A stretch of 64,000 nucleotides of DNA from Promethearchaeota archaeon (lineage in GTDB: Archaea; Asgardarchaeota; Lokiarchaeia; Sigyniarchaeales; SOKP01): positions 14,536 through 78,535 of the forward strand of contig JBHLON010000014.1 of the NCBI GenBank assembly GCA_048940445.1, in the 5' to 3' direction. This document shows positions 1,430 through 16,033 of the stretch, in pieces; within the stretch, counting starts at the first letter, position 1; every line of letters begins with the position of its first letter. A model generated the notes under the pieces. That model ran no database searches, was not told the DNA's origin, and saw only the letters and a program-made list of their open reading frames with translations. Both the position numbers and the translations under genes were made by a program.

Positions 1430-3211
1430 TTGAGAGTTAAAATGTCATCAAAGAATAAAGGTTCAATGAAAAAACCTCCCAAAAAGAAAATTAAAGTATT
1501 TAAAAAAAACCGAATTGTAATTTTTGGAATAGTGGGTTGCATAGCGTTAGCAGGAATTATTGGTGGAATAACAATCTTTTTATATTCACCAGAGGAAAAA
1601 ATTTTATATATATCCTTTACAGATTTAGCTGTATGTACTTTAGGGATTGACCCACTTATAACTTGGGTACCAGCTGATTACGAGATAATTAATCAAGTTG
1701 CTGAAGGTTTATTTACGCATGATTCAGCTAATCAACAATCCCAAATAATTTATAACCTTGCCATAAATTATTCAAGGAATGAGGATGCTACAGAGTATAT
1801 TTTTGAACTGAGACAAGGTGTTCAATTCCATGATGGAACACCATTTAATGCACCAGCGGTTCAATGGAATATTGATAGAATATACACTTTAATTGCAAAC
1901 GGTAAAATGCACTATACTTCAAAACAATTCTGGTTATTTTCCGATGGGACATGGATTATAAATCATACTGAAATCATTAATGATTATAATATAAAGTTCA
2001 TATTAAACAAGCCCTATATCCCCCTTACTGCATTATTAGCCTCTGTTAATGCATTCATGGTCTCACCTACTTCAACTTCTCAAAATGATTTTATTTCACC
2101 AACAGAAATTTTAATCGGAACTGGTCCTTTTTTATTTGGTGTTTGGAATAAAAATCATAGCCTAGTACTCTCTTCCAATCCAAATTATTGGGGTGGTAAA
2201 CCTCAGATTGATAAATTGATATTCAAGATTTATCCAACTCCAGAAGATAAATTCGAAGCATTACTTTCTGGAGAACTTTCAATGTTAAGTGGTTACAACG
2301 AATTACATAGTCATGCTCATTATTTGGATTCCCTCGGAATTTATGATAATGATGTCCTAGACACTTTTATAAACAATCCTGATGTAATAGTAGAAGAAGA
2401 CCCTTCAGCGCCATTTTTTGATTACTTACTAATGAACAACGAATTAATTAATGTAACTATGAGAAAAGCAATATCTTATGCTTGTAATTACTCTGCTTAT
2501 ATAGATAAGTGGTTAAGTGGTCATGGAATAAGACTTAGATCTCCTATTCCAGAAGGTGTTTTATACTCAAACACAACTAGTATTGAAGTTCCTTATTATA
2601 ATATTTCAATAGCACGACAAACTCTAAAAGATGTTAATTGGAGCGGAGTTGCCGGGGCTTTGACTGCTGATGATAACGTTTCTGCAGGTAATCAATGGGA
2701 AAAATTAGTAGATGATGGAAAACCTTTAGAGACATATAATTTTACATACATAAGTGGTATGTTAAATGGGATTGTCTTTTTAAATATAGTAACAGAAGAT
2801 CTAAAGCAAATTGGAGTAAAGGTAGAAGGCGTTAGCATTACACTTGGAGAATATAATGAAATCTTTCACGAAAACTTAAATAGGGTTGAACTTTCACATA
2901 TGGGTTATATTACGAGATTTAATGATCCTTGCAGTATTGTGAATATTTTATGTTCAAATAAAGCTTTAGATTTAAATTATTGTCAGGTTAATGATAATTC
3001 AACCCAAGATTTAATTGAACTTGCTCTAGCAGAAACTAATGAGGCTATAAGAGAACATTATTACTATCAAATTCAAAGACGTTTAATTGAAAAAATATTC
3101 CCAATGTGTTACCTTTTTGAAAGAAATTTTTTTAGGATTTATAGATCCAATTTAAAAGGATTTGAGATTAACTATTTTAATCCTGTATACAAAGATATTC
3201 ACTTTATCTAA
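1430..3211 (+). CDS. Family-5 (Opp/Dpp-like) solute-binding protein, N-terminal membrane anchor
   Basis: LRQGVQFHDGTPFNA..VQWN, IGTGPF and NPNYWG motifs; single N-terminal TM. Confidence 0.9.
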   Translation: MRVKMSSKNKGSMKKPPKKKIKVFKKNRIVIFGIVGCIALAGIIGGITIFLYSPEEKILYISFTDLAVCTLGIDPLITWVPADYEIINQVAEGLFTHDSANQQSQIIYNLAINYSRNEDATEYIFELRQGVQFHDGTPFNAPAVQWNIDRIYTLIANGKMHYTSKQFWLFSDGTWIINHTEIINDYNIKFILNKPYIPLTALLASVNAFMVSPTSTSQNDFISPTEILIGTGPFLFGVWNKNHSLVLSSNPNYWGGKPQIDKLIFKIYPTPEDKFEALLSGELSMLSGYNELHSHAHYLDSLGIYDNDVLDTFINNPDVIVEEDPSAPFFDYLLMNNELINVTMRKAISYACNYSAYIDKWLSGHGIRLRSPIPEGVLYSNTTSIEVPYYNISIARQTLKDVNWSGVAGALTADDNVSAGNQWEKLVDDGKPLETYNFTYISGMLNGIVFLNIVTEDLKQIGVKVEGVSITLGEYNEIFHENLNRVELSHMGYITRFNDPCSIVNILCSNKALDLNYCQVNDNSTQDLIELALAETNEAIREHYYYQIQRRLIEKIFPMCYLFERNFFRIYRSNLKGFEINYFNPVYKDIHFI

Positions 3212-3259: not shown

Positions 3260-4261
3260 CTATGTGTTTTGGAGTTCTAACTCTTCATACATACCAATTG
3301 GAAAATTAAACAACAAATTATAATTATATTGTGCGGGATAATCATCGGAAGTCAAATGATAGACATCTGTCCCATTTACTGTTGTCACATAATATGCAAA
3401 ACCTACAAGTTCAGCAATTTTTTGATTAATAGCATAATCATCTGGGTGTACATATAATATAAAATATGCTCCAACTTCATCTGTATTGTCTATATAAGTT
3501 AATCGATAATTACCAGTAATTATTGTGATATTACCAATTATGTTAGCATTTGTAGCTTTAGTTTGAGAGATTTCAATATGGATATTACCCTTTTTAGTAT
3601 AAAGCGTCCATGTACTATTTTGCGTGTATTTTATATCATAGTTTTTCATCTCAAGATCTCCTCTGTCATTGATAATAGCACTAATATTACCTTCTAAGAG
3701 ACAGTAGAAAAAGTTATATTTGATATTACCTCTTGAAACATTAGCTTCTATATTCCCCACTGAAACACCATATGGAACAGATATACGAGCACCTCCTTTA
3801 ATGCTAACTCTGATATCAATATCATAAATTACATCTGCTTTTAGAGCTATATTTACATCAATACTCTTTATTAGGGATAGAATTTTAACTTTGTCTATAC
3901 CTGTTTTTAAATTCATGGTGAAGTATAAAAGACTACTTGTATTCTGCCAAGCAATATTGAAATAATCTAAATATGATTTTCCAGCTAAACTTTGGCCATT
4001 CATTTCAATACTTATATCTATTTTCGCATAATAACTAACTGGGTCAGTTATATATTCTATTTCAACTTCCCCTATATCAATATCAATATTTAATCCATTC
4101 GAAAATGTAGGGGTGCTAGGATTATAATAGAACTGAATTGATTTATAAATGTTGCCAAAAGATGAGAGAGCTGTTGAAATAATAACGATAGGTATAGAAA
4201 AAATGATACTCAAACAAAATATAATCAATATAATAACAGTTTTAATAGCTTTATATGCCAT
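3260..4261 (-). CDS. Membrane-anchored beta-rich protein (DUF4097/adhesin-like), paralog of 13840..14892
   Basis: N-terminal TM, repeated 'G.I.I' strands; shares YLD/FDD-Y.NI.W.N.SS and [VI]PYGVS with the paralog. Confidence 0.55.
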   Translation of the reverse strand: MAYKAIKTVIILIIFCLSIIFSIPIVIISTALSSFGNIYKSIQFYYNPSTPTFSNGLNIDIDIGEVEIEYITDPVSYYAKIDISIEMNGQSLAGKSYLDYFNIAWQNTSSLLYFTMNLKTGIDKVKILSLIKSIDVNIALKADVIYDIDIRVSIKGGARISVPYGVSVGNIEANVSRGNIKYNFFYCLLEGNISAIINDRGDLEMKNYDIKYTQNSTWTLYTKKGNIHIEISQTKATNANIIGNITIITGNYRLTYIDNTDEVGAYFILYVHPDDYAINQKIAELVGFAYYVTTVNGTDVYHLTSDDYPAQYNYNLLFNFPIGMYEELELQNT

Positions 4262-4439
4262 CTTTTAATTTATACAAGGAGTATTAAATTTTTCCTAAGT
4301 AATTTATATAAAAGGATTAAATTTAAATTAATTCCTCGAAATAACAAGTTAGAAGTTAAAGTTTAAGAGCGAAATTTTTTTATATATCCAATATGAGCTA
4401 ATTATTAAAAAAATTTCATGTTTGTTTAGGTGATTCCAC

Positions 4440-5450
4440 ATAATTTTCTTTATTACATTTGATCCTTTAGAACGTTTTTTTTCGTCTATTGCAATAGTGG
4501 TATTAATTTTTTGTTGTATATTTTACATTTCTCAGGGGCGTAAAAAAGAGATCCTACATGAAAAAATATTGATGTATAGTTTTGCAAGTTTTTGGCTTAG
4601 TATTTCTTTAGCAAGAATATTTTATTATTTTTCTGATATATTTTTAGAAGGGACTTATTCAGGTGATTTAAGCACACTTATTCTAACATATAATGTACTT
4701 AATTACATTTTTCTTTACTTTTATCTATATTCTCATATTTATATCTTAATTAGTATAATTATATTAAGTATTATGTTTATATGGTTTTCAATAAAGTCAA
4801 AAAAAGAATTCCAGTTAGTATCATCAGTAGTAGCCATTGGATTTACTATAGTTTTGATTGGATGGGTTTTTGAGACAATAGCATTAAAGCAATTAAATCT
4901 TATATCTCCAGTATTACCTTCAATTTTTATAATAGTGGGAACTATAACCGCAACAATTCCTCTAATTGCAAATATTGAGTTCTTTTCAAGCAAATTAATT
5001 AATTGGTTAGTTTTAATTTCAATTATTCTGATCTTACTATTTTTTAGTTTAACCATTTTCACCAATCTCCCACTAGTTCTTTTGAGTCAAATAATAATTT
5101 TAATTTCAACCTCTGTTTTAATTGTGGTGATCATTTATGTGACAATTTACATAATTAAGAGAACTAAAGTGTCAGAAGTTCAAGAAATAGTTCCAAAGGA
5201 GGAGCTTAAAGACTTTTTGAAGACTTTTATGAAACCCACTACTATTACTATCGAGGAAATTCAATTATATAAAGAGAAAGGATTATGTTTAGTGTGCAAA
5301 AGTAAAGTTACACGGTTAAATTATATTTGTCCCAAATGCAATGCATTATATTGTTTAAAATGCTCAAGAGCATTAACTAATTTAGAAAATGGTTGCTGGG
5401 TCTGCGAGACCCCCTTTGATGAATCCAAACCTATGAAAATTTCTAAATAA
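4440..5450 (+). CDS. Polytopic membrane protein with C-terminal C4C4 RING-like zinc finger (candidate E3)
   Basis: About 6-7 hydrophobic helices, then CLVC-x10-CPKC-x4-CLKC-x10-CWVC. Track start is GTG 4497; the frame is open back to ATA 4440, which follows AGGTGA. Confidence 0.7.
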   Translation: MIFFITFDPLERFFSSIAIVVLIFCCIFYISQGRKKEILHEKILMYSFASFWLSISLARIFYYFSDIFLEGTYSGDLSTLILTYNVLNYIFLYFYLYSHIYILISIIILSIMFIWFSIKSKKEFQLVSSVVAIGFTIVLIGWVFETIALKQLNLISPVLPSIFIIVGTITATIPLIANIEFFSSKLINWLVLISIILILLFFSLTIFTNLPLVLLSQIIILISTSVLIVVIIYVTIYIIKRTKVSEVQEIVPKEELKDFLKTFMKPTTITIEEIQLYKEKGLCLVCKSKVTRLNYICPKCNALYCLKCSRALTNLENGCWVCETPFDESKPMKISK

Positions 5451-5475
5451 AATAATTAATAGAAAGGTAAAGTTT

Positions 5476-5685
5476 ATGATTGAATTATTGATATTACTGC
5501 TTATAATATTTTTGGCAATTCCTTATATTATATTATCTTTTATAACATTCTGGGTATATAAAGATGCAAAAAAAAGAGATATGAATGTATTTGCTTGGAT
5601 TTTGGTGATTTGGTTAATCCCCTTCTTTATTGGTTTAGTCATTTATTTAAAAATTAGAATACAATATTCTGTCACTAGGTTTTAA
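5476..5685 (+). CDS. Small 2-3 TM protein (PLDc_N-like)
   Basis: WVYKDAKKR...W.LVI.LIPFFIGLVIYL..R pattern. Confidence 0.65.
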   Translation: MIELLILLLIIFLAIPYIILSFITFWVYKDAKKRDMNVFAWILVIWLIPFFIGLVIYLKIRIQYSVTRF

Positions 5686-5968
5686 TATTGTTATATTTTC
5701 CAAATTTCTTTCAAAGTCAACTTATTTATATTCTTTAGAATCCTGTTCAATAGAAAATTTTAAAATTTTATCATTCGGAGGGCGACATTCTGGAATTTTT
5801 TTTGCTTCAATGTTCAAAAATCTTAACTCTTGACTCTTATCATTATGGACTTTGTTTTTTTTACTCAGCTCAATACACTCAAAATTTCAGTTAAAAATAT
5901 ACTTATATTAATTAATGTTAATATCTATAATAAAATTAATTACAATTATGTAAGGAATATTAATTTCG

Positions 5969-6985
5969 ATGTTAAAACCTCCTCAAATTTTATTTACCGG
6001 AGAAAATGGAGTTGGTAAAACCACTATCTTGAATTTATTTCCAGAAGATATTATTTTAGAATTAGATGATAACTTTAATGAAATTTTTCAAAAGCAAGTT
6101 AATATTACTGGAACCAGAGGTATAGAACATTGTATTTTAAGAGAAATTGATTTAAGAGAATTAGTAGACAATTTTTTTTCTTTTCAAAAACTTTTACATA
6201 CTATTGATATCATTCTCATTGTTACTGATTCAACTGAGCGAAATGTTAAATATACTTATGATTTATTTTCTGAATTGAAATACAAATTACCTAAAATTGA
6301 TTTTTACATAATTGCTAATTTTCAAGACAGAAAGTCAATCTCAATGCCCATAGAAAAAATGGAATATACATTAAAAGAGAAAGTTTTTGGATATTCAGCG
6401 ATCCAAGAGGATTCAAAAGATTGTATAACTGAAATTATTAAAGAGATTTTAGAAATTTCTATTATTAAAAAGCAAGGAAAAAAGCCTTCATTTGATAAAA
6501 TTGATTACAATATAATTTGGTCAGACATAGAAGAAGCAAGATTGTTGGAAAAGAAAGGAGATCATTATACAGCATCAAAAAAATTCTCAATTGCTGGATC
6601 TAAATTTAAAATACTAAATTCAAATGAAGAAAAAGAAGAATTCAAAGCATTATACAATTTGTGTAAAGCTTGGGAGTGTATAGAATTAGCTGAAGAATAT
6701 GAAAATATTTCGAAGTTTGCTGAAGCTGTGAAATTTTTTGATCAAGCAATTGAATCTCTTTCTGATGAGAAATTGAAATTATTAGTATCAGCTAATTTAA
6801 TGCATTGTGAAGCTTTAAAATTAGGAATGGAGTCAGATATATCAGATCAACTGCATATTAAAGAAAGATTATATATAGAAATAATCGATTTAATTAACAA
6901 AGCAGTTAATTTATATAAAAGAGGAGGTTTTGAAAAAGAAGCAGAGTTTGCTTTAACTACCTTGAATAAATTAAAGAGCCTTTAA
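5969..6985 (+). CDS. Small-GTPase-like domain (degenerate G3/G4) fused to helical TPR-like repeats
   Basis: G1 GENGVGKT, G4-like ANFQD, G5 YSA; no DxxG. C-terminal AxxLYK/AxxFFDQA helices. Confidence 0.7.
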   Translation: MLKPPQILFTGENGVGKTTILNLFPEDIILELDDNFNEIFQKQVNITGTRGIEHCILREIDLRELVDNFFSFQKLLHTIDIILIVTDSTERNVKYTYDLFSELKYKLPKIDFYIIANFQDRKSISMPIEKMEYTLKEKVFGYSAIQEDSKDCITEIIKEILEISIIKKQGKKPSFDKIDYNIIWSDIEEARLLEKKGDHYTASKKFSIAGSKFKILNSNEEKEEFKALYNLCKAWECIELAEEYENISKFAEAVKFFDQAIESLSDEKLKLLVSANLMHCEALKLGMESDISDQLHIKERLYIEIIDLINKAVNLYKRGGFEKEAEFALTTLNKLKSL

Positions 6986-7038
6986 TTGAGTAAAATTAAA
7001 ATTTTAGTAAAATATCTTAAAACATTACAAGGATAAAA

Positions 7039-7533
7039 TTGACATTATTCGAAAAAGATTTTCTATTTCCAGTATACATAGATAAAAATACTTTAAATCA
7101 TATTGATGAATTATGCAAAAATTCTGATAGAGAAATTTTTGGCTATTTAATTGGTTTAATTTTAAAATGGAGAAAGAATAAATATATTGTTATAAAAGAA
7201 CAGATTTATATTAAAAATACAGTTAGAAGTAATAAATTTAATACATCTCAAATTGAAGGAACTGCAGGAAAATATGAACAGGAATTTCAAAAGTTGAAAT
7301 ATGATATGGGGAACGAGAATTTACAAGTTATAGGATGGTGGCATTCTCATATCAATCTAGGTTGCTTCTTATCATTAACTGACATTCACACACAAGAATA
7401 TTTTTTTCCCGAATCTTACCAAGTTGCTTTAGTAGTTGATCCCATTCGAGAGGAATTCAAATTTTTTACATTAGATAAAGGCTCAAAAAAGAAATACAAA
7501 ACGCTAAGTTATGCTATTATATCTTCAACTTAA
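7039..7533 (+). CDS. JAB/MPN+ (JAMM) isopeptidase, Rpn11-like
   Basis: REIFGYLIG plus GWWHSHINLGCFLSLTDIHTQ (HxH-x7-S-x2-D), ALVVDP. Confidence 0.92.
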   Translation: MTLFEKDFLFPVYIDKNTLNHIDELCKNSDREIFGYLIGLILKWRKNKYIVIKEQIYIKNTVRSNKFNTSQIEGTAGKYEQEFQKLKYDMGNENLQVIGWWHSHINLGCFLSLTDIHTQEYFFPESYQVALVVDPIREEFKFFTLDKGSKKKYKTLSYAIISST

Positions 7534-7550
7534 CAATTTAGTTTATATCT

Positions 7551-8432
7551 ATGAGTAAGAAAGAAAATAAAGGAATTAAAGTGATTGGAACTGATTCCAT
7601 AGATTCAGATAGATTCGATCGCCAAAAGAGAATTATTGGTTGGGATCAAACTACTATTTCTAATGCGACAATCATGGTAATTGGTGCTGGAGCTACTGGA
7701 AATGAAGTTGTAAAAAACTTAGCTTTAGTTGGAGTTGGAAAAATATTTTTAATTGATTTTGATTTCATTCAAACTTCAAATTTAAGTCGTTGTGTGTTGT
7801 TTAACCCTAAAGCAGCAAAAGATAGAGAATACAAAGCAGATGTTATTAAAGATGTATGCAGAGACTTAAATCCTGATGTTGAGGTTGTTTCAATTAAAAA
7901 AGACTTAAATTCAATAGATAAAACCCTTTATAGCAAGTGTAATGTAATATGCTCTTGCTTAGACAATCTTGAAGCACGAATTGAAGCTAACAATTATGCA
8001 TACTATAATCGAATTCCTTTTGTTGATTCTGGGATTGACGAATTTTTTGGTTCCGTTCAAGCAGTATATTCAGAAGTTGAAAATTCAGCTTGTTTGCAAT
8101 GTGGTATATCAGAAAAAGATTTGGATTTAATGTGGAAAAAATTTTCTTGTACTGGAGAGGAAATAAAGTCTGAAGAAGGTGAAACCACAAGAAAAATAGC
8201 AACAATCGTAACAACTACTTCAATAATAAGCGGTATTCAATCTCAGCAGGTTCTAAAATTTTTACTTGGAATGAATTATTATAAGGAAGATAAGAAATGG
8301 AATCCTTATATTGGAGAACCCTTAGTTGGAAAACAATTAATTTATAATGGTCTAACAAACAGTTTCAGCATTATTGATAAACTAAAAGATCCAAAGTGTT
8401 GGACTTGCTCATATAAAAAATTTAAGATTTAA
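7551..8432 (+). CDS. Ubiquitin-activating E1 / ThiF-family enzyme
   Basis: RFDRQ, GAGATG, D.D.I..SNLSR, CLDNLEAR, zinc pairs CLQC/CWTC, putative catalytic Cys in FSCT. Confidence 0.92.
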   Translation: MSKKENKGIKVIGTDSIDSDRFDRQKRIIGWDQTTISNATIMVIGAGATGNEVVKNLALVGVGKIFLIDFDFIQTSNLSRCVLFNPKAAKDREYKADVIKDVCRDLNPDVEVVSIKKDLNSIDKTLYSKCNVICSCLDNLEARIEANNYAYYNRIPFVDSGIDEFFGSVQAVYSEVENSACLQCGISEKDLDLMWKKFSCTGEEIKSEEGETTRKIATIVTTTSIISGIQSQQVLKFLLGMNYYKEDKKWNPYIGEPLVGKQLIYNGLTNSFSIIDKLKDPKCWTCSYKKFKI

Positions 8433-8449
8433 ATTAAGAGGACATATAG

Positions 8450-8968
8450 ATGCCAGAATTACCTTTTGAGATATGGAAAGAAAGAGTAAATAATGAGATA
8501 AAGATTCTAAGTACCATTAACCTTGTTGAAAATAAATCTATAGCATGGTATGATAATAGTGTAGAATTATGGATTAATTTAAGTGCCTTTGGATTTATTA
8601 AAGGAGAAAGTGAAGGAGGTATCAATGTAAAGCCTCAGATGAATCACCGAATTCTCATTAAAATAAATAGATCCTTTCCATATCCTGGAGGGATTGATTT
8701 TGCTTGGTATTCAAATATATTTCATCCAAATATTCATCCCATTGAGTTAGAAGGATTGAAAAGGATAGGGACCGGTTATATATGTTTAAATATTTTAAGG
8801 CAATGGACAAAATTATCAGATTTGGAAACTACAGTAAAGTCTCTAGAAAAATTAGTAGAGAATCCCAATCCAGAGGACCCCCTCCAATATGATATTTGTA
8901 TCGAAGCAGCTGAATTTTTTAAAAGAAATTCAATCCAAAAACTTAAAAAAATTTACAACGTGAAATAA
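8450..8968 (+). CDS. Ubiquitin-conjugating E2 (UBC fold)
   Basis: FPYP, IFHPNI, GYICLNIL..W (catalytic Cys), NPNPEDPL..EAA. Confidence 0.92.
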   Translation: MPELPFEIWKERVNNEIKILSTINLVENKSIAWYDNSVELWINLSAFGFIKGESEGGINVKPQMNHRILIKINRSFPYPGGIDFAWYSNIFHPNIHPIELEGLKRIGTGYICLNILRQWTKLSDLETTVKSLEKLVENPNPEDPLQYDICIEAAEFFKRNSIQKLKKIYNVK

Positions 8969-8994
8969 GATGAGCCTATATATGTTAAATAAGA

Positions 8995-9249
8995 TTAACC
9001 TCCTATAACTTTTGTCCATAACATTAAAATATCATACTCTTTTAGCCCAAATTTGTGTATTGCCTCCTTAATTGATATCGTATTTGGCAATTCCTTTTCT
9101 TTGTACACTAAAGCATAAGAACGTTGTTCTGAGCTTATAAACCCCATATGTTTGACAACAATTTCTATAATCCGTTCTATTATATGGTGTTCCTTTACAT
9201 CTAACTTTATTCTTTTGCCCGTTCTGGTATCTTCTATTGATAATTTCAT
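8995..9249 (-). CDS. Ubiquitin-like protein ending in di-glycine
   Basis: 84 aa beta-grasp pattern with C-terminus ...WTKVIGG-stop; adjacent to E1/E2/JAB. Confidence 0.88.
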   Translation of the reverse strand: MKLSIEDTRTGKRIKLDVKEHHIIERIIEIVVKHMGFISSEQRSYALVYKEKELPNTISIKEAIHKFGLKEYDILMLWTKVIGG

Positions 9250-9298
9250 TTTTATTCTGATTTTTCTTTTAAAGACAAATAAATTTATTCAACTAATA

Positions 9299-9340
9299 AT
9301 TTTTAGTTTTGAGTTCGAAACTTTTCACAAAGTTCGAATT
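9299..9340 (-). promoter_or_regulatory. 42-bp conserved upstream motif, copy A (before Ubl gene)
   Basis: AATTCGAACTTTGTGAAAAGTTTCGAACTCAAAACTAAAAAT, ending 49 bp before the ATG. Confidence 0.75.
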
Positions 9341-9345
9341 AGTTA

Positions 9346-10641
9346 TTATTCTTGTTCTTTCAACTTTTTATTAATTTCATCCAATATCTTATATTTTGGA
9401 AAATCTTTTAGAATTGAAGTTAAAATGGTTTTTTCTCTTTTAATTCTGTCATAATCCTCTAATTTTAGGTTAATTATATTTTGAAAAGCTAAACCCTTAA
9501 ACTTATCTACTAAATCATCTGAAATTGTTTCTTTTTGATATTTCCCAAATAAGAAATTGATGTAATCAGGTAGAAATTTCTTTAGAGGTGATTTTATATT
9601 TCTATCAAATAGTTTATCAGAAATGTCATTTAAAATATTGTCTAATAAATCTACGGTTTGTGAATTTCTTTCTTCTTTAGAGATGTCAGGTTGTAATCTT
9701 TTGAGATAACTAAACTTTAGAATGTTCTCATCTATAATTAAATGCAGCATTTTATCAATTTTGTCATCTTCTCGAAAACAATATACCATCTCATCATTAA
9801 ATCTTAAATTGAAAAATTTTGAACCATATAAATTCTCTTCAGTAATCTTTTGCACACAAAAAGTAAGTGTAGCTAGCTTAATATTATATTTAAGAGCGAA
9901 ATTTTCTTGTGAAATATATTCTGGATATCGACTTGGATGATTTATAGAAAGAAACAATAATATTTTATAAAAATCTTCTTTTGATGGGAGTATATTCTCA
10001 ATGACGCTATAATTAAAATGATTAATTAAATCAAGAAGTAAAATTTCTATTAGGTTATCTTCGATATCCTGCTCCTTAAGAAACTTTCTGGCATTTTCTT
10101 TGATACTTTCTATCTTATCTATCTCTTCTTCTAAAATTGATTGATAATCTAATTGATATTTTTTCAGCATTTTATTATATCGTTCCTCACCGACCTTAGT
10201 GATTCTGTATTCCATATTTTCGCTATCGACAAAACCTTTTTTCATTAAAAGATTTAAATATTTTGATAGAGAATTATGATTGAGAGAAAGAGGCTTTTCA
10301 ATAAAATCTGACCACTTTAAATAGTCGTTATTAAATAACATCCACAAGATGATATGAACATAATTTCTCTTGTTCAAAATGATCTCTGGAGGATATCTTA
10401 ATTTTCTCTCAAATGAGTCTTTAAATTTCAAATCTATATATCTTTTCTTACCTTCAGTAGTAGCTACATAAACTCCTTTACTCTTTTTCCCAACATAGCC
10501 GTTTGAAATTAATAATTTCATATATTTAGACAATGTAGCTAGGCTGATTTCTAGTGGCTTATCTAAAAAGACAGACCAATTACACTCCTCATTATTATTT
10601 AGCATCCAGAGGATTATATATTCAAAATCTTTCTTCTCCAT
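9346..10641 (-). CDS. Tandem winged-HTH transcription regulator
   Basis: Two repeats of IILWML.NN....WS.F..KPL......LSKY...L...G.V......Y..T..G..RY. The true start is probably upstream of 10641. Confidence 0.8.
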   Translation of the reverse strand: MEKKDFEYIILWMLNNNEECNWSVFLDKPLEISLATLSKYMKLLISNGYVGKKSKGVYVATTEGKKRYIDLKFKDSFERKLRYPPEIILNKRNYVHIILWMLFNNDYLKWSDFIEKPLSLNHNSLSKYLNLLMKKGFVDSENMEYRITKVGEERYNKMLKKYQLDYQSILEEEIDKIESIKENARKFLKEQDIEDNLIEILLLDLINHFNYSVIENILPSKEDFYKILLFLSINHPSRYPEYISQENFALKYNIKLATLTFCVQKITEENLYGSKFFNLRFNDEMVYCFREDDKIDKMLHLIIDENILKFSYLKRLQPDISKEERNSQTVDLLDNILNDISDKLFDRNIKSPLKKFLPDYINFLFGKYQKETISDDLVDKFKGLAFQNIINLKLEDYDRIKREKTILTSILKDFPKYKILDEINKKLKEQE

Positions 10642-10902: not shown

Positions 10903-10944
10903 TATTCTAAGTTCGCTAAAGGTTTCGAACTTAAATCTAAAAAT
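10903..10944 (+). promoter_or_regulatory. 42-bp conserved upstream motif, copy B
   Basis: TATTCTAAGTTCGCTAAAGGTTTCGAACTTAAATCTAAAAAT, 33/42 identical to copy A, 76 bp before ATG 11021. Confidence 0.7.
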
Positions 10945-11020: not shown

Positions 11021-11791
11021 ATGAATAGAAATAACCTATCTAAATTGATTCTCTTAACCTTTCTGATGTTCGCTATTTTCAGTTTTATACCAGTAGTTGC
11101 AGCAAGCTCAGGTAATGTAACCAAAAGACCATTAGATGATTGGTTAGATCCGAATTACGCTGCTTTCCCGTGGGGCGAAAAAAATTGGGCTTTTTATGAC
11201 TTTTGGAGCCCTTATTCTGGTTTAGTGACGAAGATGGGGTTACCTTGGCCTTTGGCTGGCTTCTACCCATTCGTTAACGACATGATATACGAAAATAGTT
11301 TAGTAATAGGAGATACTATAATTGATGGTAATATTAAAGAACGAGCATTAAACGATGGAACTGCTTTAATAACCCTGCAATTAAATGTGAAAAACGCTCC
11401 ATGTTCAGTGTATGATTACTTCGATTTTATTCTTTACTGTCTTGGGGCTGCTCCTTACCCTCAAGCTGTATTGGGAGATGGAATTGATGGGTATATCGAT
11501 TATACCGTGTTAGTTAAATTTTATATCCCTGAACCTGGAGCAGAGTTACCAAATGTATTTGATATGTGGTATTATTATGTCTCGATTAATATTCACGGTA
11601 TTGGTTATGGAACATTAACAGAACGTGCAGTTGAGCTCGGTTTTGCCGAAACTGCTGGTGCACCCGGAATGGTAGAACTTCATCACATAGCCCTTTTTAA
11701 GCCTGATTTCAAAGAAACTCATCCTAAATATGATCCATTTTATGGTGATTTATGGCCAGTTGACTCCGTTGAAGTTTATGAATTGAGTTAG
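11021..11791 (+). CDS. Secreted protein of unknown function, paralog of 15083..15880
   Basis: Signal peptide; shared motifs KRPLDDW, NVKNAP, HG.G.GT, HP.Y, LW.VD.V. Confidence 0.8.
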   Translation: MNRNNLSKLILLTFLMFAIFSFIPVVAASSGNVTKRPLDDWLDPNYAAFPWGEKNWAFYDFWSPYSGLVTKMGLPWPLAGFYPFVNDMIYENSLVIGDTIIDGNIKERALNDGTALITLQLNVKNAPCSVYDYFDFILYCLGAAPYPQAVLGDGIDGYIDYTVLVKFYIPEPGAELPNVFDMWYYYVSINIHGIGYGTLTERAVELGFAETAGAPGMVELHHIALFKPDFKETHPKYDPFYGDLWPVDSVEVYELS

Positions 11792-12068: not shown

Positions 12069-13778
12069 ATGATTAAAATGATAGAAAAAGCTTCTTCTAA
12101 AAAAAGATTTCCTAATATCAAAGAATTCAAGAAAATAATCATAGTTGGAGGGTCAATAATAAGCTTAGCGATAGTTGGGATTATAAGTGGAATTATTATT
12201 ATGGGAGAGATCCCGCAAGGAGGTATTCTTAAAGTAGGTATAACTAAACCTATTGGAGAAATTGACCCTCTTATGTATAGCTTTTCTTCAGAAGAAATAG
12301 TAATTAATCATGTTACCGAGACGTTATTTGATAATATTTATATAGGTGGTAAATCTCAAACTCTTCCTCATCTAGCATTAGATGGAAATTGGAGTTCGGA
12401 CTACCTAAATTTCACATGCACACTTAGAAAGAATGTCATGTTCCATGACGGAACGCCATTTAATGCTGCAGCTGTTAAATGGAACTTCGATAGAATTACT
12501 CAAATTATCGATTCATCACTTCTATCTTGGTATTTGTGGGGTTACCTATTTTTTTTACCAGATGGGCGCTGGATTGTAAATAAAACTCTAGTCTTAGATT
12601 CCCATATTGTAAAATTTGTTTTAAATGATGTTTTTGTACCTTTTCGAGAATTATTAACTCATAGTACTACAAGTATTTTATCACCATCATCAACCCCTGC
12701 GGATAAACCCCTAAATACACACATTGATAATTTAGTTGGAACCGGTCCTTTTATATATGATGGTTATGAACCTAATGTCAATATGTCATTATCTCCTAAT
12801 CAGGATTACTGGGGAACAAAACCTGAAATTGATAAGGTAATTTTAAAGTTTTATTCTCCAACTAATGATACTAATCGTATTAACATTTTATGGAATGCGC
12901 TTTTAGCAGGAGAAATTCATATAGTAGACCGGGACTTTATTAAATTTTTAATAAGGTTCTATCCAGAAAGATCTATCGAACTCCTTAAAGGTGTTGCAGG
13001 AATTACAGTTCAACAAAAGCCTACTATAAGCTATTTTTATGTTTTTTTTTATCCTAAACTTATTAATAGTACAATGAGAAAGGCAATATCTTATGCAATT
13101 AACTATTCTAATATCCTTGAAATAGTTCCTAACTCTATAACAGCCAGATCCCCAATTCCAGAAGGTATCCCTTACTCTAACATTACTGGTATTGACATTC
13201 CTTATTATAACATTTCAAAAGCAAGACAAATGTTAATTGACGAAGGTTGGCCTGGAACAGCGGGTTTAACGGCAAATGACAATATTACAGCAGGAAACGA
13301 ATGGGAACAATTAGTAACTAATGGATTCCCTCTTGCTATATATAATTTATCTTATTATCCAGGGAATCCATACAATGAATTACCACCAATTCCTTTTCCA
13401 GAAAATCTTAAACAACTTGGAGTCAATGTATCATGTCAACCAATTTGGAGTGGTGCTCCGTCTCAACTTGAAACATTAATGTGGATGTATGACTATAACG
13501 ATCCACACACTGGTATGCTTGATTATCATTCAAAATGGACTTTATGGACCGACTTTAATGTTAGTGTATTAGATGAATTGATAGAAGAAGGAATTAAGGA
13601 GACAAATCCTGTTTTAAGAGAAGCGATATACTATAATATTCAAAAACTTATAATCGAGGAAATTTGTCCTGTTATATTTACTCTCTCTCCACGAAATTTA
13701 GATATATATGCATCAAATTTAATAGGTTGGCAAATTTATCCATTCAAAATAGTATTTAAAACAGTTTATTTCGTCTAA
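12069..13778 (+). CDS. Family-5 solute-binding protein, paralog of 1430..3211
   Basis: LRKNVMFHDGTPFNAAAVKWN, VGTGPF, MRKAISYA, RSPIPEG, LTA.DN..AGN.WE. Confidence 0.9.
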   Translation: MIKMIEKASSKKRFPNIKEFKKIIIVGGSIISLAIVGIISGIIIMGEIPQGGILKVGITKPIGEIDPLMYSFSSEEIVINHVTETLFDNIYIGGKSQTLPHLALDGNWSSDYLNFTCTLRKNVMFHDGTPFNAAAVKWNFDRITQIIDSSLLSWYLWGYLFFLPDGRWIVNKTLVLDSHIVKFVLNDVFVPFRELLTHSTTSILSPSSTPADKPLNTHIDNLVGTGPFIYDGYEPNVNMSLSPNQDYWGTKPEIDKVILKFYSPTNDTNRINILWNALLAGEIHIVDRDFIKFLIRFYPERSIELLKGVAGITVQQKPTISYFYVFFYPKLINSTMRKAISYAINYSNILEIVPNSITARSPIPEGIPYSNITGIDIPYYNISKARQMLIDEGWPGTAGLTANDNITAGNEWEQLVTNGFPLAIYNLSYYPGNPYNELPPIPFPENLKQLGVNVSCQPIWSGAPSQLETLMWMYDYNDPHTGMLDYHSKWTLWTDFNVSVLDELIEEGIKETNPVLREAIYYNIQKLIIEEICPVIFTLSPRNLDIYASNLIGWQIYPFKIVFKTVYFV

Positions 13779-13839: not shown

Positions 13840-14892
13840 TTATTCAAATAATGAGGGTATACTTGTCAGATCCATGTCAAAATCTCCCTCTAGGATTTCA
13901 AACCTGATATTGTAATAGTACTTAACAATGTTTGCTAGTAAATCATCTGATGTAAAATAAAAAATGCCCTCATATGTAGTTTGTGCAATACGATTGAAAT
14001 CAAAACCATCTACAAGCGTACATATGAGACCAGGAACCTGCAATAAACAAGTAGGAAATCCACTTTTATCCATGAATTCTCCTCCGTAGGGAATTTCAAG
14101 CATTGCACCAATATCAGCGCTGTTATCCTTATAGTAAATAAAAATATCTCCTTTATTAACTTTGAATATCCCTGTTGTGTTAGCACCAATATCTCTATAT
14201 TGAAAAACTTCAATGTCTATATTACCCTCTCTAGTGTTTATGTCCCAACTACTATTTTGAGCATATTGCACATCATTTGACTTGAAAATCAAATTTCCAT
14301 TATTTATAGTTCCAATTATGTTTCCTTGAATTGAACAGTGCTCAAAATTGTACAAAATATTTCCATTGGAGACGTTTGTTAATAAATCTCTAAAGGAAAC
14401 GCCATAAGGAATAGTTATTTCAAAGTTTCCTTTAGTTAGATTGGTAATAATATCAAATACAATATCTTTTCTAATATTTACAACAATACTTATTTCTTTC
14501 TTTAACCAATATAGTGGATTAAACCAATCATCCGATATAATTTTCAATTTAAGATTTATCTGAGAACTTGAGTTGTTCCATGAAATGTTCAAATAATCAT
14601 CAAATGATTTACCAACTAAGTTTTCTCCAATTAAAGCAATATTTACGTCTATTAATACAAAATAATCAACTGGTGGATTAATATATCTTATTTCTATATT
14701 ACCCTCATCAGCATCAATATATAACTTTTCAATAGATGATGGTGAGCTTGGTTCATATATAAAAGAACGAGATTCGTTAATATGGTCATACAATGAGGAT
14801 CTGAATGAAAGTAATTGGATTGGAATAATTATCATAAGAGAACCCCATAAAATAACCAATATAACTACTCCAACTATACTTTTTTTCGCCAT
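13840..14892 (-). CDS. Membrane-anchored beta-rich protein (DUF4097/adhesin-like), paralog of 3260..4261
   Basis: N-terminal TM, GNI/GNF/GDI strand repeats, same position relative to the SBP gene. Confidence 0.55.
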   Translation of the reverse strand: MAKKSIVGVVILVILWGSLMIIIPIQLLSFRSSLYDHINESRSFIYEPSSPSSIEKLYIDADEGNIEIRYINPPVDYFVLIDVNIALIGENLVGKSFDDYLNISWNNSSSQINLKLKIISDDWFNPLYWLKKEISIVVNIRKDIVFDIITNLTKGNFEITIPYGVSFRDLLTNVSNGNILYNFEHCSIQGNIIGTINNGNLIFKSNDVQYAQNSSWDINTREGNIDIEVFQYRDIGANTTGIFKVNKGDIFIYYKDNSADIGAMLEIPYGGEFMDKSGFPTCLLQVPGLICTLVDGFDFNRIAQTTYEGIFYFTSDDLLANIVKYYYNIRFEILEGDFDMDLTSIPSLFE

Positions 14893-14986: not shown

Positions 14987-15028
14987 AATTCGAACTTTGC
15001 GCGAAGTTTCAAAGTCAAATCTAAAAAT
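14987..15028 (+). promoter_or_regulatory. 42-bp conserved upstream motif, copy C
   Basis: AATTCGAACTTTGCGCGAAGTTTCAAAGTCAAATCTAAAAAT, 36/42 identical to copy A, 54 bp before ATG 15083. Confidence 0.75.
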
Positions 15029-15082: not shown

Positions 15083-15880
15083 ATGAACAGAAAATATAGA
15101 GGACTTTTATCAATAACATGTTTAGCAATTTTTGGGATTTTAATCATGGGCGCTATACCAGCAGTACAGGGAGCCTCTTCGATCAAAAGACCACTTGATG
15201 ATTGGTTTTATGATGTCTTTGGTTACGATCTCAATCCCAACGTTGGTGGGTGGGTTGACGGATATCAAGTAAGACCTCAAGGCATAGATTATAATATGAC
15301 CACTGATGAGTGGATCTATCAACCGATTTGGGAATGTACATATGATGGCTTTATCCTTGATAGAGACATGCATGATGGTCGACATATGATTACAGTTAAT
15401 ATAAACGTCAAAAATGCTCCAGTTATCGTTGCTCCACCTTTTGGGAGTGGAGGATATTATTGGGTTTTCCAAGGTTTTATGGATTATAAATATCAATATA
15501 ATTTCATAATAGACATAGAGGTTTGGGCTGGCTGGCTGATAATGTTGGGCTTTGATGATGATGGCTTCGACGAATATGGAAATATCCTGTTACCTAGATG
15601 GGACCTACCCATGGTTTATGGCTCAGTCTTCGGATTTGAATTCATATCAGTGCATTTTCATGGTGATGGAGAAGGAACAATAGTTAACTATTGGGATGAG
15701 TCCTGGGTGGGAAATGGAGATCGTATTTGGGAACCAGGTGAATCAGCAAAATTGAGTACTAATATGGTTGGACTTGTAAAGGATGATTTCAAACTAGATC
15801 ATCCCAATTATTGGCCCTCAGAGTATTCTGGATTGCCTTGGAGTGTATTATGGGCAGTTGACTTCGTAAAATTACATTAA
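15083..15880 (+). CDS. Secreted protein of unknown function, paralog of 11021..11791
   Basis: Signal peptide and the same shared motifs. Confidence 0.8.
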   Translation: MNRKYRGLLSITCLAIFGILIMGAIPAVQGASSIKRPLDDWFYDVFGYDLNPNVGGWVDGYQVRPQGIDYNMTTDEWIYQPIWECTYDGFILDRDMHDGRHMITVNINVKNAPVIVAPPFGSGGYYWVFQGFMDYKYQYNFIIDIEVWAGWLIMLGFDDDGFDEYGNILLPRWDLPMVYGSVFGFEFISVHFHGDGEGTIVNYWDESWVGNGDRIWEPGESAKLSTNMVGLVKDDFKLDHPNYWPSEYSGLPWSVLWAVDFVKLH

Positions 15881-15997: not shown

Positions 15998-16033
15998 CTA
16001 TGTAAGATAAATTTAATATATTAAGTAAAATAA

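Follow-up and report, generated by a model that had tools for sequence, protein, structure and literature searches.

The window, a 64,000-nucleotide stretch of a Promethearchaeota archaeon genome (contig C110 of the 3.64-Mb Asgard genome G000, positions 14536-78535, ~30% GC), carries a compact ubiquitin-like conjugation locus at window positions 4443-10641, in which six plus-strand genes are followed by two minus-strand genes. The plus-strand intergenic gaps measure 17-54 nt, except for 283 nt between the small membrane protein gene and the GTPase/TPR gene, and homologues of the locus proteins carry Promethearchaeota or Lokiarchaeota labels in public records. An earlier, sequence-only reading of this DNA had given the content, order, and strands of these eight genes, all of which we found in the sequence, and had taken them for a full conjugation set that includes a membrane RING protein, with which our domain and fold assignments agree. 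The genes, together with the operator-like element lying between the last two, are as follows (window positions).

4443..5450, plus strand: RING membrane protein, with a likely ATT start at 4443 (the open reading frame finder gave GTG at 4497, that is, 4497-5450)
5476..5685, plus strand: small membrane protein of 69 aa with two transmembrane (TM) segments; no family assigned by profile searches
5969..6985, plus strand: small-GTPase-fold/TPR fusion protein of 338 aa (fold, residues 1-170; solenoid, residues ~178/180-337)
7039..7533, plus strand: JAMM/MPN metallopeptidase (JAB; PF01398), with a Glu plus HxH-x7-S-x2-D motif
7551..8432, plus strand: minimal E1 of 293 aa, ThiF-type (Pfam ThiF; best solved relatives Uba1/Uba6)
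8450..8968, plus strand: divergent UBC-type E2 of 172 aa (UQ_con), with HPN and catalytic Cys
8995..9249, minus strand: ubiquitin-like protein (Ubl) of 84 aa ending VIGG-stop, with weak ubiquitin/NEDD8 matches; its gene is convergent with the enzyme operon
9299..9340, minus strand: operator-like palindrome upstream of the Ubl gene, with inverted repeats
9346..10641, minus strand: double winged helix-turn-helix (wHTH) protein of 431 aa, a candidate regulator (HTH_45, HTH_34; Sso10a family)

Each of the conjugation enzymes was placed in a known family by profile searches. The E1 matched the Pfam ThiF model at 7e-46 (157 bits), and its best solved relatives were the active adenylation domains of Uba1/Uba6 (9e-25), ahead of MoeB (8e-15); it keeps (i) a CxxC...CxxC zinc site and (ii) a conserved Cys200, the candidate catalytic cysteine. 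The E2 matched UQ_con at 2.6e-10 (40.5 bits vs a cut-off of 27), and its HPN motif and Cys align with the HPN and Cys88 of Rad6, with ~10 residues inserted between them. The JAB protein matched PF01398 at 6e-11 (42.5 bits vs a cut-off of 22.5), with the JAMM metal-site motif read from its sequence. The Ubl resembles ubiquitin (0.004) and NEDD8 (0.25) weakly by sequence, matches the Pfam TUG-UBL1 model at 9e-4, which is below the cut-off, and is not detected by PF00240. A sulphur-transfer role for the Ubl and the E1, of the SAMP, Urm1, or MoaD kind, with the other genes as chance neighbors, would draw on the scores that the E1 attains on the MoeB, ThiF, and SAMP-E1 models; those family-model scores, however, lie far under their cut-offs, and the Uba1 matches are stronger. 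Moreover, an E2 with HPN and Cys, a RING protein, and a JAMM peptidase are co-conserved with the pair, and no rhodanese domain occurs at the locus, so that we regard this role as extremely improbable.

All 23 Ubl paralogues carry the motif (K/R)V(I/V)GG, and the window copy stops directly after the GG. The sequence-only reading was thus correct that this Ubl ends in GG, without a C-terminal extension, but went too far in taking the JAB protein for a deconjugase rather than a maturase, since the Ubl of genome G262, which is 98% identical, has five residues beyond its GG, and many paralogues have 1-7 extra residues. The pro-Ubl forms in these relatives suggest that JAMM maturase activity is probably retained in the family. 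By analogy with Caldiarchaeum Rpn11, which acts as maturase and deconjugase (PMC6043591), the JAMM enzyme is probably both in this family as well.

The locus is a third, accessory E2 system of its genome, distinct from the housekeeping cluster of Lokiarchaeal ubiquitin genes. G000 has two more clear E2 genes elsewhere, on contigs C70 and C52, and a core ubiquitin-E1 pair at the end of C68 (31-34 kb) continues as E2-JAB on C70 (1-3.2 kb), with a contig break splitting the cluster. The intact core cluster is seen in G262, where it encodes ubiquitin (108 aa), E1 (410 aa), E2 (175 aa), and JAB (276 aa), and continues with a membrane protein and then further ubiquitin-domain proteins. Within the genus, core E2s of the C70 type occur in 40 of 42 genomes (86-96% identity) and those of the C52 type in 41 of 42 (86-98% identity); the accessory, window-type E2 occurs in 14 of the 42, mostly at 61-69% identity, and at 92% in G262. 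No endosomal sorting complex required for transport (ESCRT) gene lies on contig C110, as the sequence-only reading had noted of the locus; C101 carries Snf7 and Vps4, and C69 a further Snf7 gene. These data also bear on the possibility that the locus is no more than a second, diverged copy of the Asgard housekeeping cluster, serving general proteostasis or ESCRT sorting. The enzyme classes are the same, and separate ubiquitin and ESCRT regions have already been described for Lokiarchaeota (PMC9192718). However, the core cluster is present separately, with its E2, the sole component counted, in 40/42 genomes of the genus, and about two thirds of the genus lack the system under study, as do families f2 and f3, all of which makes a housekeeping copy highly improbable.

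The RING protein has ~7 TM segments in an N-out/C-in orientation, as judged from hydropathy, AlphaFold2 (AF2) helices, and alternating Lys/Arg-rich loops, with its C-terminal C4C4 RING in the cytoplasm; its features make it a probable E3 candidate whose RING would face the cytoplasmic side. The RING spacing is C-x2-C-x10-C-x2-C-x4-C-x2-C-x10-C-x2-C, in which the gap of 4 residues between ligands 4 and 5 is one more than the classical 2-3. Among 39 homologues, all eight Cys are invariant, as are V266, after the first Cys, and W301, after the seventh; these two correspond to I30 and W58, the E2-contact residues mutated in the Caldiarchaeum small RING protein (PMC5654768). In the AF2 model (mean predicted local distance difference test score, pLDDT, 73.6), residues 257-317 superpose on the Prp19 U-box (Z 7.0, root-mean-square deviation 2.0 A, 58/59 residues), and the top 13 Foldseek matches are all RING or U-box, the Hrd1 finger included, with E above 0.1. 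The Pfam zf-C3HC4_3 match, at 5.6e-4 (20 bits), is under the cut-off of 27. For the membrane domain, ESM-Atlas scores of 0.83 or less were uninformative, and VIA-align gave only helical bundles, with Z 8.5 or less; a loop of the sequence EGTYxGD is invariant. As many as 14 TM-RING paralogues occur per genome in the order, and the RING copy at G254:C261 holds four stop codons and is thus a decaying copy.

The start of the RING gene is unusual. Its reading frame is open, and conserved at the protein level (FDPLERFFSS...), for ~20 codons upstream of the first ATG/GTG/TTG, and all eight of the orthologues inspected have, 9 nt beyond a GGTGA whose TGA is the in-frame stop, a conserved ATT (window 4428-4445). 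The pattern indicates that the gene is probably translated from a conserved noncanonical AUU start at 4443, not from the GTG at 4497, which in turn suggests low or regulated translation.

The GTPase/TPR protein returned no match in a sequence search against the PDB, and its assignment comes from its AF2 model (pLDDT 88.6). Residues 1-170 of the model match MglA and Arf/Arl proteins (Foldseek E ~5e-7; Arf1, Z 16.6), and residues 178-337 form a TPR-like solenoid, for which the matches to PlcR (Z 14.7) and Bro1 (Z 13.6) are near helical-repeat noise. Across 25 orthologues, the P-loop (G1), G4 in the form NFQD, and the SA of G5 are kept, and the DxxG of G3 is replaced by REIDL. This combination suggests that the protein probably binds guanine nucleotide, without acting as a conventional switch. 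The small-GTPase fold is common to the window protein and to the Asgard Arf/MglA-type and longin-GTPase modules (HodArfR1, 8oul; LokiRagO, 8yl2), and the window protein, which aligns with HodArfR1 at Z 14.8, keeps both the P-loop and the guanine-specificity Asp. Unlike the Asgard Arf/MglA-type GTPases, it lacks the G3 DxxG and the catalytic residue and is fused to a TPR solenoid; it also lacks the N-terminal extension of its 301-aa and 870-aa relatives. Further GTPase- or TPR-domain paralogues of 300-1300 aa (P0130 at L060:8001-8942, P0123, P0150, P0155, and P0177) carry fused domains, namely TIR, CN_hydrolase, calcineurin-like phosphoesterase, and KaiC-type ATPase, and these variable effector ends form an NLR-like pattern.

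How these genes are combined in relatives was examined by tblastn of the window proteins on 20 loci in 2 genera. Enzymes lie inside the arrangement RING-small TM-GTPase/TPR-[JAB-E1-E2]-Ubl-wHTH in four genomes, namely that of the window, G262, G214, and G205, and in G219 JAB-E1-E2 is inverted beside it. An enzyme-less cassette of RING, small TM protein, GTPase/TPR, convergent Ubl, and wHTH occurs in at least 11 genomes, usually abutting a pair of genes for a family-5 solute-binding protein (SBP5) and a toast-rack protein, and is present twice in tandem in G189, which is a one-contig genome, and in G208. Such an SBP5/toast-rack pair abuts the RING gene in at least 14 cassettes, and the 69-aa two-TM protein is present in at least 15, always between the RING and GTPase genes. 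Genus g12 has core loci of their own, apart from the cassettes, in which the order is an 870-aa protein (N-terminal extension, GTPase, TPR, and CN_hydrolase), JAB, E1, E2, a convergent Ubl, and RING proteins, so that there, as in the window, a GTPase/TPR gene precedes JAB-E1-E2. Two g12 enzyme loci (L048 in G209 and L059 in G189) are flanked by genes for canonical Ras-family GTPases and for DUF998 membrane, LRR, and HSP20 proteins. Of five relatives checked, four have one accessory E2 and 2-4 Ubl paralogues each. RING, small TM protein, GTPase-TPR, Ubl, and wHTH thus make up a duplicating cassette, each with a private Ubl, and the cassettes share one JAB-E1-E2 set.

The cassette genes also diverge together. 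The identity matrices of RING, GTPase/TPR, Ubl, and wHTH, compared over 13 cassettes, gave Spearman coefficients of 0.65-0.82, with 0/2000 permutations as high, and the cassette types cut across both genera; this correlated divergence, together with the synteny, indicates that the putative specificity parts travel and diverge as a unit and that the generic enzymes are common to them. At the scale of the order (154 genomes), the accessory E2 occurs in 72 genomes and the TM-RING in 75; 65 have both, 10 the RING only, 7 the E2 only, and 72 neither, counts that are descriptive and not a statistical test, since related genomes are not independent. Families f2 and f3 have neither gene, and even within a single genus the presence and absence of the RING and the E2 move together. 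The sequence-only reading had depended on RING and GTPase genes being retained along with the conjugation genes; we found both co-conserved with the Ubl in every cassette examined and, at the level of whole genomes, with E1/E2/JAB, as the above counts of RING and E2 show, so that this attempt at refuting the reading did not succeed.

The double-wHTH protein scores above the Pfam cut-offs for both HTH_45 and HTH_34, and its gene adjoins the Ubl gene in 16 cassettes. The 42-nt element at 9299-9340, between the two genes, consists of the palindrome TTCGAAC-N-GTTTCGAA and then AAATCTAAAAAT. Nine cassettes from several species retain it upstream of the Ubl gene, six more have half-site remnants, and it is missing in the g12 core loci, where no wHTH gene adjoins either. 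The conservation of the element, and its absence where the wHTH gene is absent, support a dedicated regulator, in agreement with the proposal in the sequence-only reading that the locus has a regulator of its own. The element recurs upstream of two secreted-protein genes in the window (10904-10944 and 14987-15028), which links Ubl expression to surface-protein genes. Five more double-wHTH paralogues (38-44% identity) are encoded in G000, on C37, C75, C43 (two copies), and C39, and none of the five is next to ubiquitin or SBP5 genes.

The surroundings of the locus in the window, including the further operator copies, are as follows.

1430-3211, plus strand: membrane-anchored SBP5, forming a pair with the toast-rack gene
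3260-4261, minus strand: TM-anchored toast-rack/DUF4097-like beta-helix protein, its gene convergent with the SBP5 gene and divergent from the RING gene
10904..10944, plus strand: operator motif copy 2 (I2, 80%), upstream of the 256-aa secreted-protein gene (11021-11791)
11021-11791: secreted 256-aa protein, with the operator motif upstream
12069-13778: second SBP5, within the island
13840-14892, minus strand: second toast-rack protein, within the island
14987..15028, plus strand: operator motif copy 3 (I1, 86%), upstream of the 265-aa paralogue gene (15083-15880)
15083-15880: secreted 265-aa protein, a paralogue of the 256-aa protein, with the operator motif upstream

These genes and the ubiquitin locus lie together on a genomic island. 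When the DNA was compared with that of G258, a close relative whose core E2s share 96-98% identity with those of G000, contig C34 of G258 was found to join C110:11021 directly to C110:30561, with the intervening 19.5 kb missing. The island accordingly spans C110:11022-30560, between a 235-aa and a 184-aa gene, with its right boundary near window position 16025. Besides the ubiquitin genes and the wHTH gene, it contains three SBP5/toast-rack pairs, two secreted proteins that are paralogues of each other, and a beta-helix protein; every close toast-rack paralogue in G000 lies on it. No tRNA was found in the window and no integrase signal for the island, and the island ends have no long direct repeats, only AT-rich microhomology. 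The cassette and the membrane-anchored SBP5 and toast-rack proteins thus share one island and are inherited jointly. In the SBP5 that adjoins the cassette, the membrane anchor is preceded by an N-terminal cytoplasmic tail rich in Lys (window 1430-1600), which may serve as an acceptor site should the surface proteins be substrates.

Accessory, island-borne conjugation genes also raise the question of defense. Bacterial Bil and CBASS Cap2/Cap3 are Ubl-conjugation systems in immunity, and the locus might likewise be an immunity or conflict system, in which infection would trigger Ubl conjugation at the membrane on viral or host proteins, with the GTPase-TPR protein as the sensor. Such a role would fit (i) the patchy occurrence within the genus, the fast divergence, and the island location; (ii) the number of RING paralogues, up to 14 per genome; (iii) the fusion of GTPase/TPR paralogues to TIR, nitrilase, metallophosphatase, and KaiC-type domains; and (iv) the CN_hydrolase domain carried by the operon-leading GTPase-TPR protein of g12. 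However, generic JAB and ThiF-domain matches were all that PADLOC returned, leaving the RING, GTPase, Ubl, and E2 without any; the E1 is nearest to Uba1, and the E2 is of the UBC type; and the other island genes encode surface or solute-binding proteins, not known defense genes. Further, the one contig examined for a GTPase-TIR paralogue, that of P0130, has no adjacent ubiquitin genes, and a dedicated transcription factor with a secreted-protein regulon fits regulation better than abortive infection. On balance, we consider an immune role, although the foremost alternative, fairly unlikely.

We favor, with moderate confidence, the view that the locus is an accessory, lineage-restricted Ubl system of one Loki-type Asgard family, whose likeliest role is regulated Ubl tagging at the membrane. 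Going by the families to which the proteins belong, the minimal E1 would adenylate the GG-ended Ubl and pass it to the UBC-type E2, the 7-TM protein would use its C4C4 RING to bring the E2~Ubl to the membrane on its cytoplasmic side, and the JAMM peptidase would trim pro-Ubl, where an extension exists, and strip conjugates. Synteny and structure further suggest that the GTPase-TPR protein is probably a nucleotide-dependent adaptor, which gates the RING or presents substrates, and that the double-wHTH protein may control the Ubl gene and the two secreted-protein genes through their common palindrome. The outcome would be signaling from, or turnover of, the co-inherited set of surface proteins. 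The sequence-only reading had likened the module to endoplasmic-reticulum-associated degradation, an analogy for which we found no support.

Several observations weigh against membrane tagging as we propose it. In the RING, the linchpin position after the last Cys is Glu here and Glu/Asp in most homologues, and a linchpin Arg/Lys is important for eukaryotic RINGs as well as for the small RING protein of Caldiarchaeum (PMC5654768). The E1 (293 aa, vs 410 aa for the core E1) is without a C-terminal domain like the ubiquitin-fold domain (UFD), and the GTPase, lacking DxxG, may not cycle. Two near-complete genomes have no detectable accessory E2, namely G235, which has one Ubl in a RING-GTPase-Ubl-wHTH cassette, and G234, which keeps TM-RING genes. 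The co-diversification test leaves shared species history in place, and the link to SBP5 and toast-rack proteins is one of synteny; the large domains of these proteins may be extracellular and so out of reach of the Ubl machinery. Finally, the support is genomic and structural, drawn from sequences and models.

The closest archaeal relatives of the locus are the Caldiarchaeum subterraneum operon for ubiquitin, E1-like, E2-like, small RING, and Rpn11 proteins and the Asgard clusters (PMC5654768, PMC6043591, PMC9192718). Like these, it combines in one operon a GG-ended Ubl, a ThiF-type E1, a UBC-type E2 with HPN and Cys, and a JAMM protein, along with a RING that has the E2-contact Val/Ile and Trp, and there are pro-Ubl forms among its orthologues. 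It differs in that (i) its RING is the tail of a 7-TM protein, is C4C4, and lacks the linchpin Arg/Lys, whereas theirs is small and soluble; (ii) its E1, at 293 aa, has no UFD-like end; (iii) its E2 and Ubl are far more divergent (UQ_con gives 40 bits, vs 89 in the core E2, and PF00240 misses the Ubl); and (iv) a GTPase-TPR gene leads the enzyme genes, the system is accessory and island-borne, and there are satellite cassettes with private Ubls. The eukaryotic polytopic RING ligases (Hrd1, MARCH, Pex2/10/12, and other transmembrane RNFs; PMC4021871) share with the window protein a multi-pass domain joined to a cytoplasmic RING, an architecture that would bring E2~Ub to the membrane. However, we detected no relationship to theirs, in sequence or in fold, for the membrane domain, and the window RING is C-terminal and C4C4, not RING-H2 or RING-CH. 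The restriction of the window type to one archaeal family suggests convergence with these ligases rather than common ancestry. With the bacterial Bil (Ubl-E1-E2-JAB) and CBASS Cap2/Cap3 systems, the likeness is that of an accessory, island-borne Ubl/E1/E2/JAB set. PADLOC found the ThiF-domain part of the Cap2 models (7e-15) and weak JAB matches, with no E2 or Ubl match; in contrast to those systems, the window E1 and E2 are separate and eukaryote-like, and the locus also encodes a GTPase, a transcription factor, and a candidate RING E3.

We found no description in the literature of an archaeal ubiquitin cassette with a membrane RING and a GTPase, the supplementary 'Cluster III' of PMC5654768 being outside that coverage, and no paper on an operon led by a GTPase gene, on the satellites, or on the island. 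New here are the island boundaries, the logic of satellites with private Ubls and their co-diversification, the conserved operator, the SBP5/toast-rack linkage, and the probable ATT start of the RING gene.

A more ambitious version of membrane tagging, which we hold to be decidedly unlikely, would make each cassette an insulated, ubiquitin-based transmembrane pathway running from solute-binding sensing to transcription reset. An orphan solute-binding protein would report an extracellular ligand to the 7-TM RING receptor; under gating by the GTPase-TPR protein, the RING would attach the private Ubl to the wHTH regulator or adaptor of the cassette; and this attachment would reset transcription of the Ubl and surface-protein genes, with E1, E2, and JAB common to the pathways. 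If true, this would be a prokaryotic signaling principle distinct from two-component and Ser/Thr-kinase systems.

Both RING ligases embedded in the membrane and a coupling between ubiquitin and small GTPases are seen as belonging to the endomembrane system of eukaryotes, and here a membrane RING and a small-GTPase partner are found in one conserved operon of the archaeal group closest to eukaryotes. Its island-borne, patchy, and fast-diverging character marks the system as a lineage-specific accessory invention, which suggests caution against calling every 'eukaryote-like' Asgard gene ancestral. As a compact eight-gene system, it may also offer a view of how a minimal E1/E2 pair serves many membrane E3s and several private Ubls.

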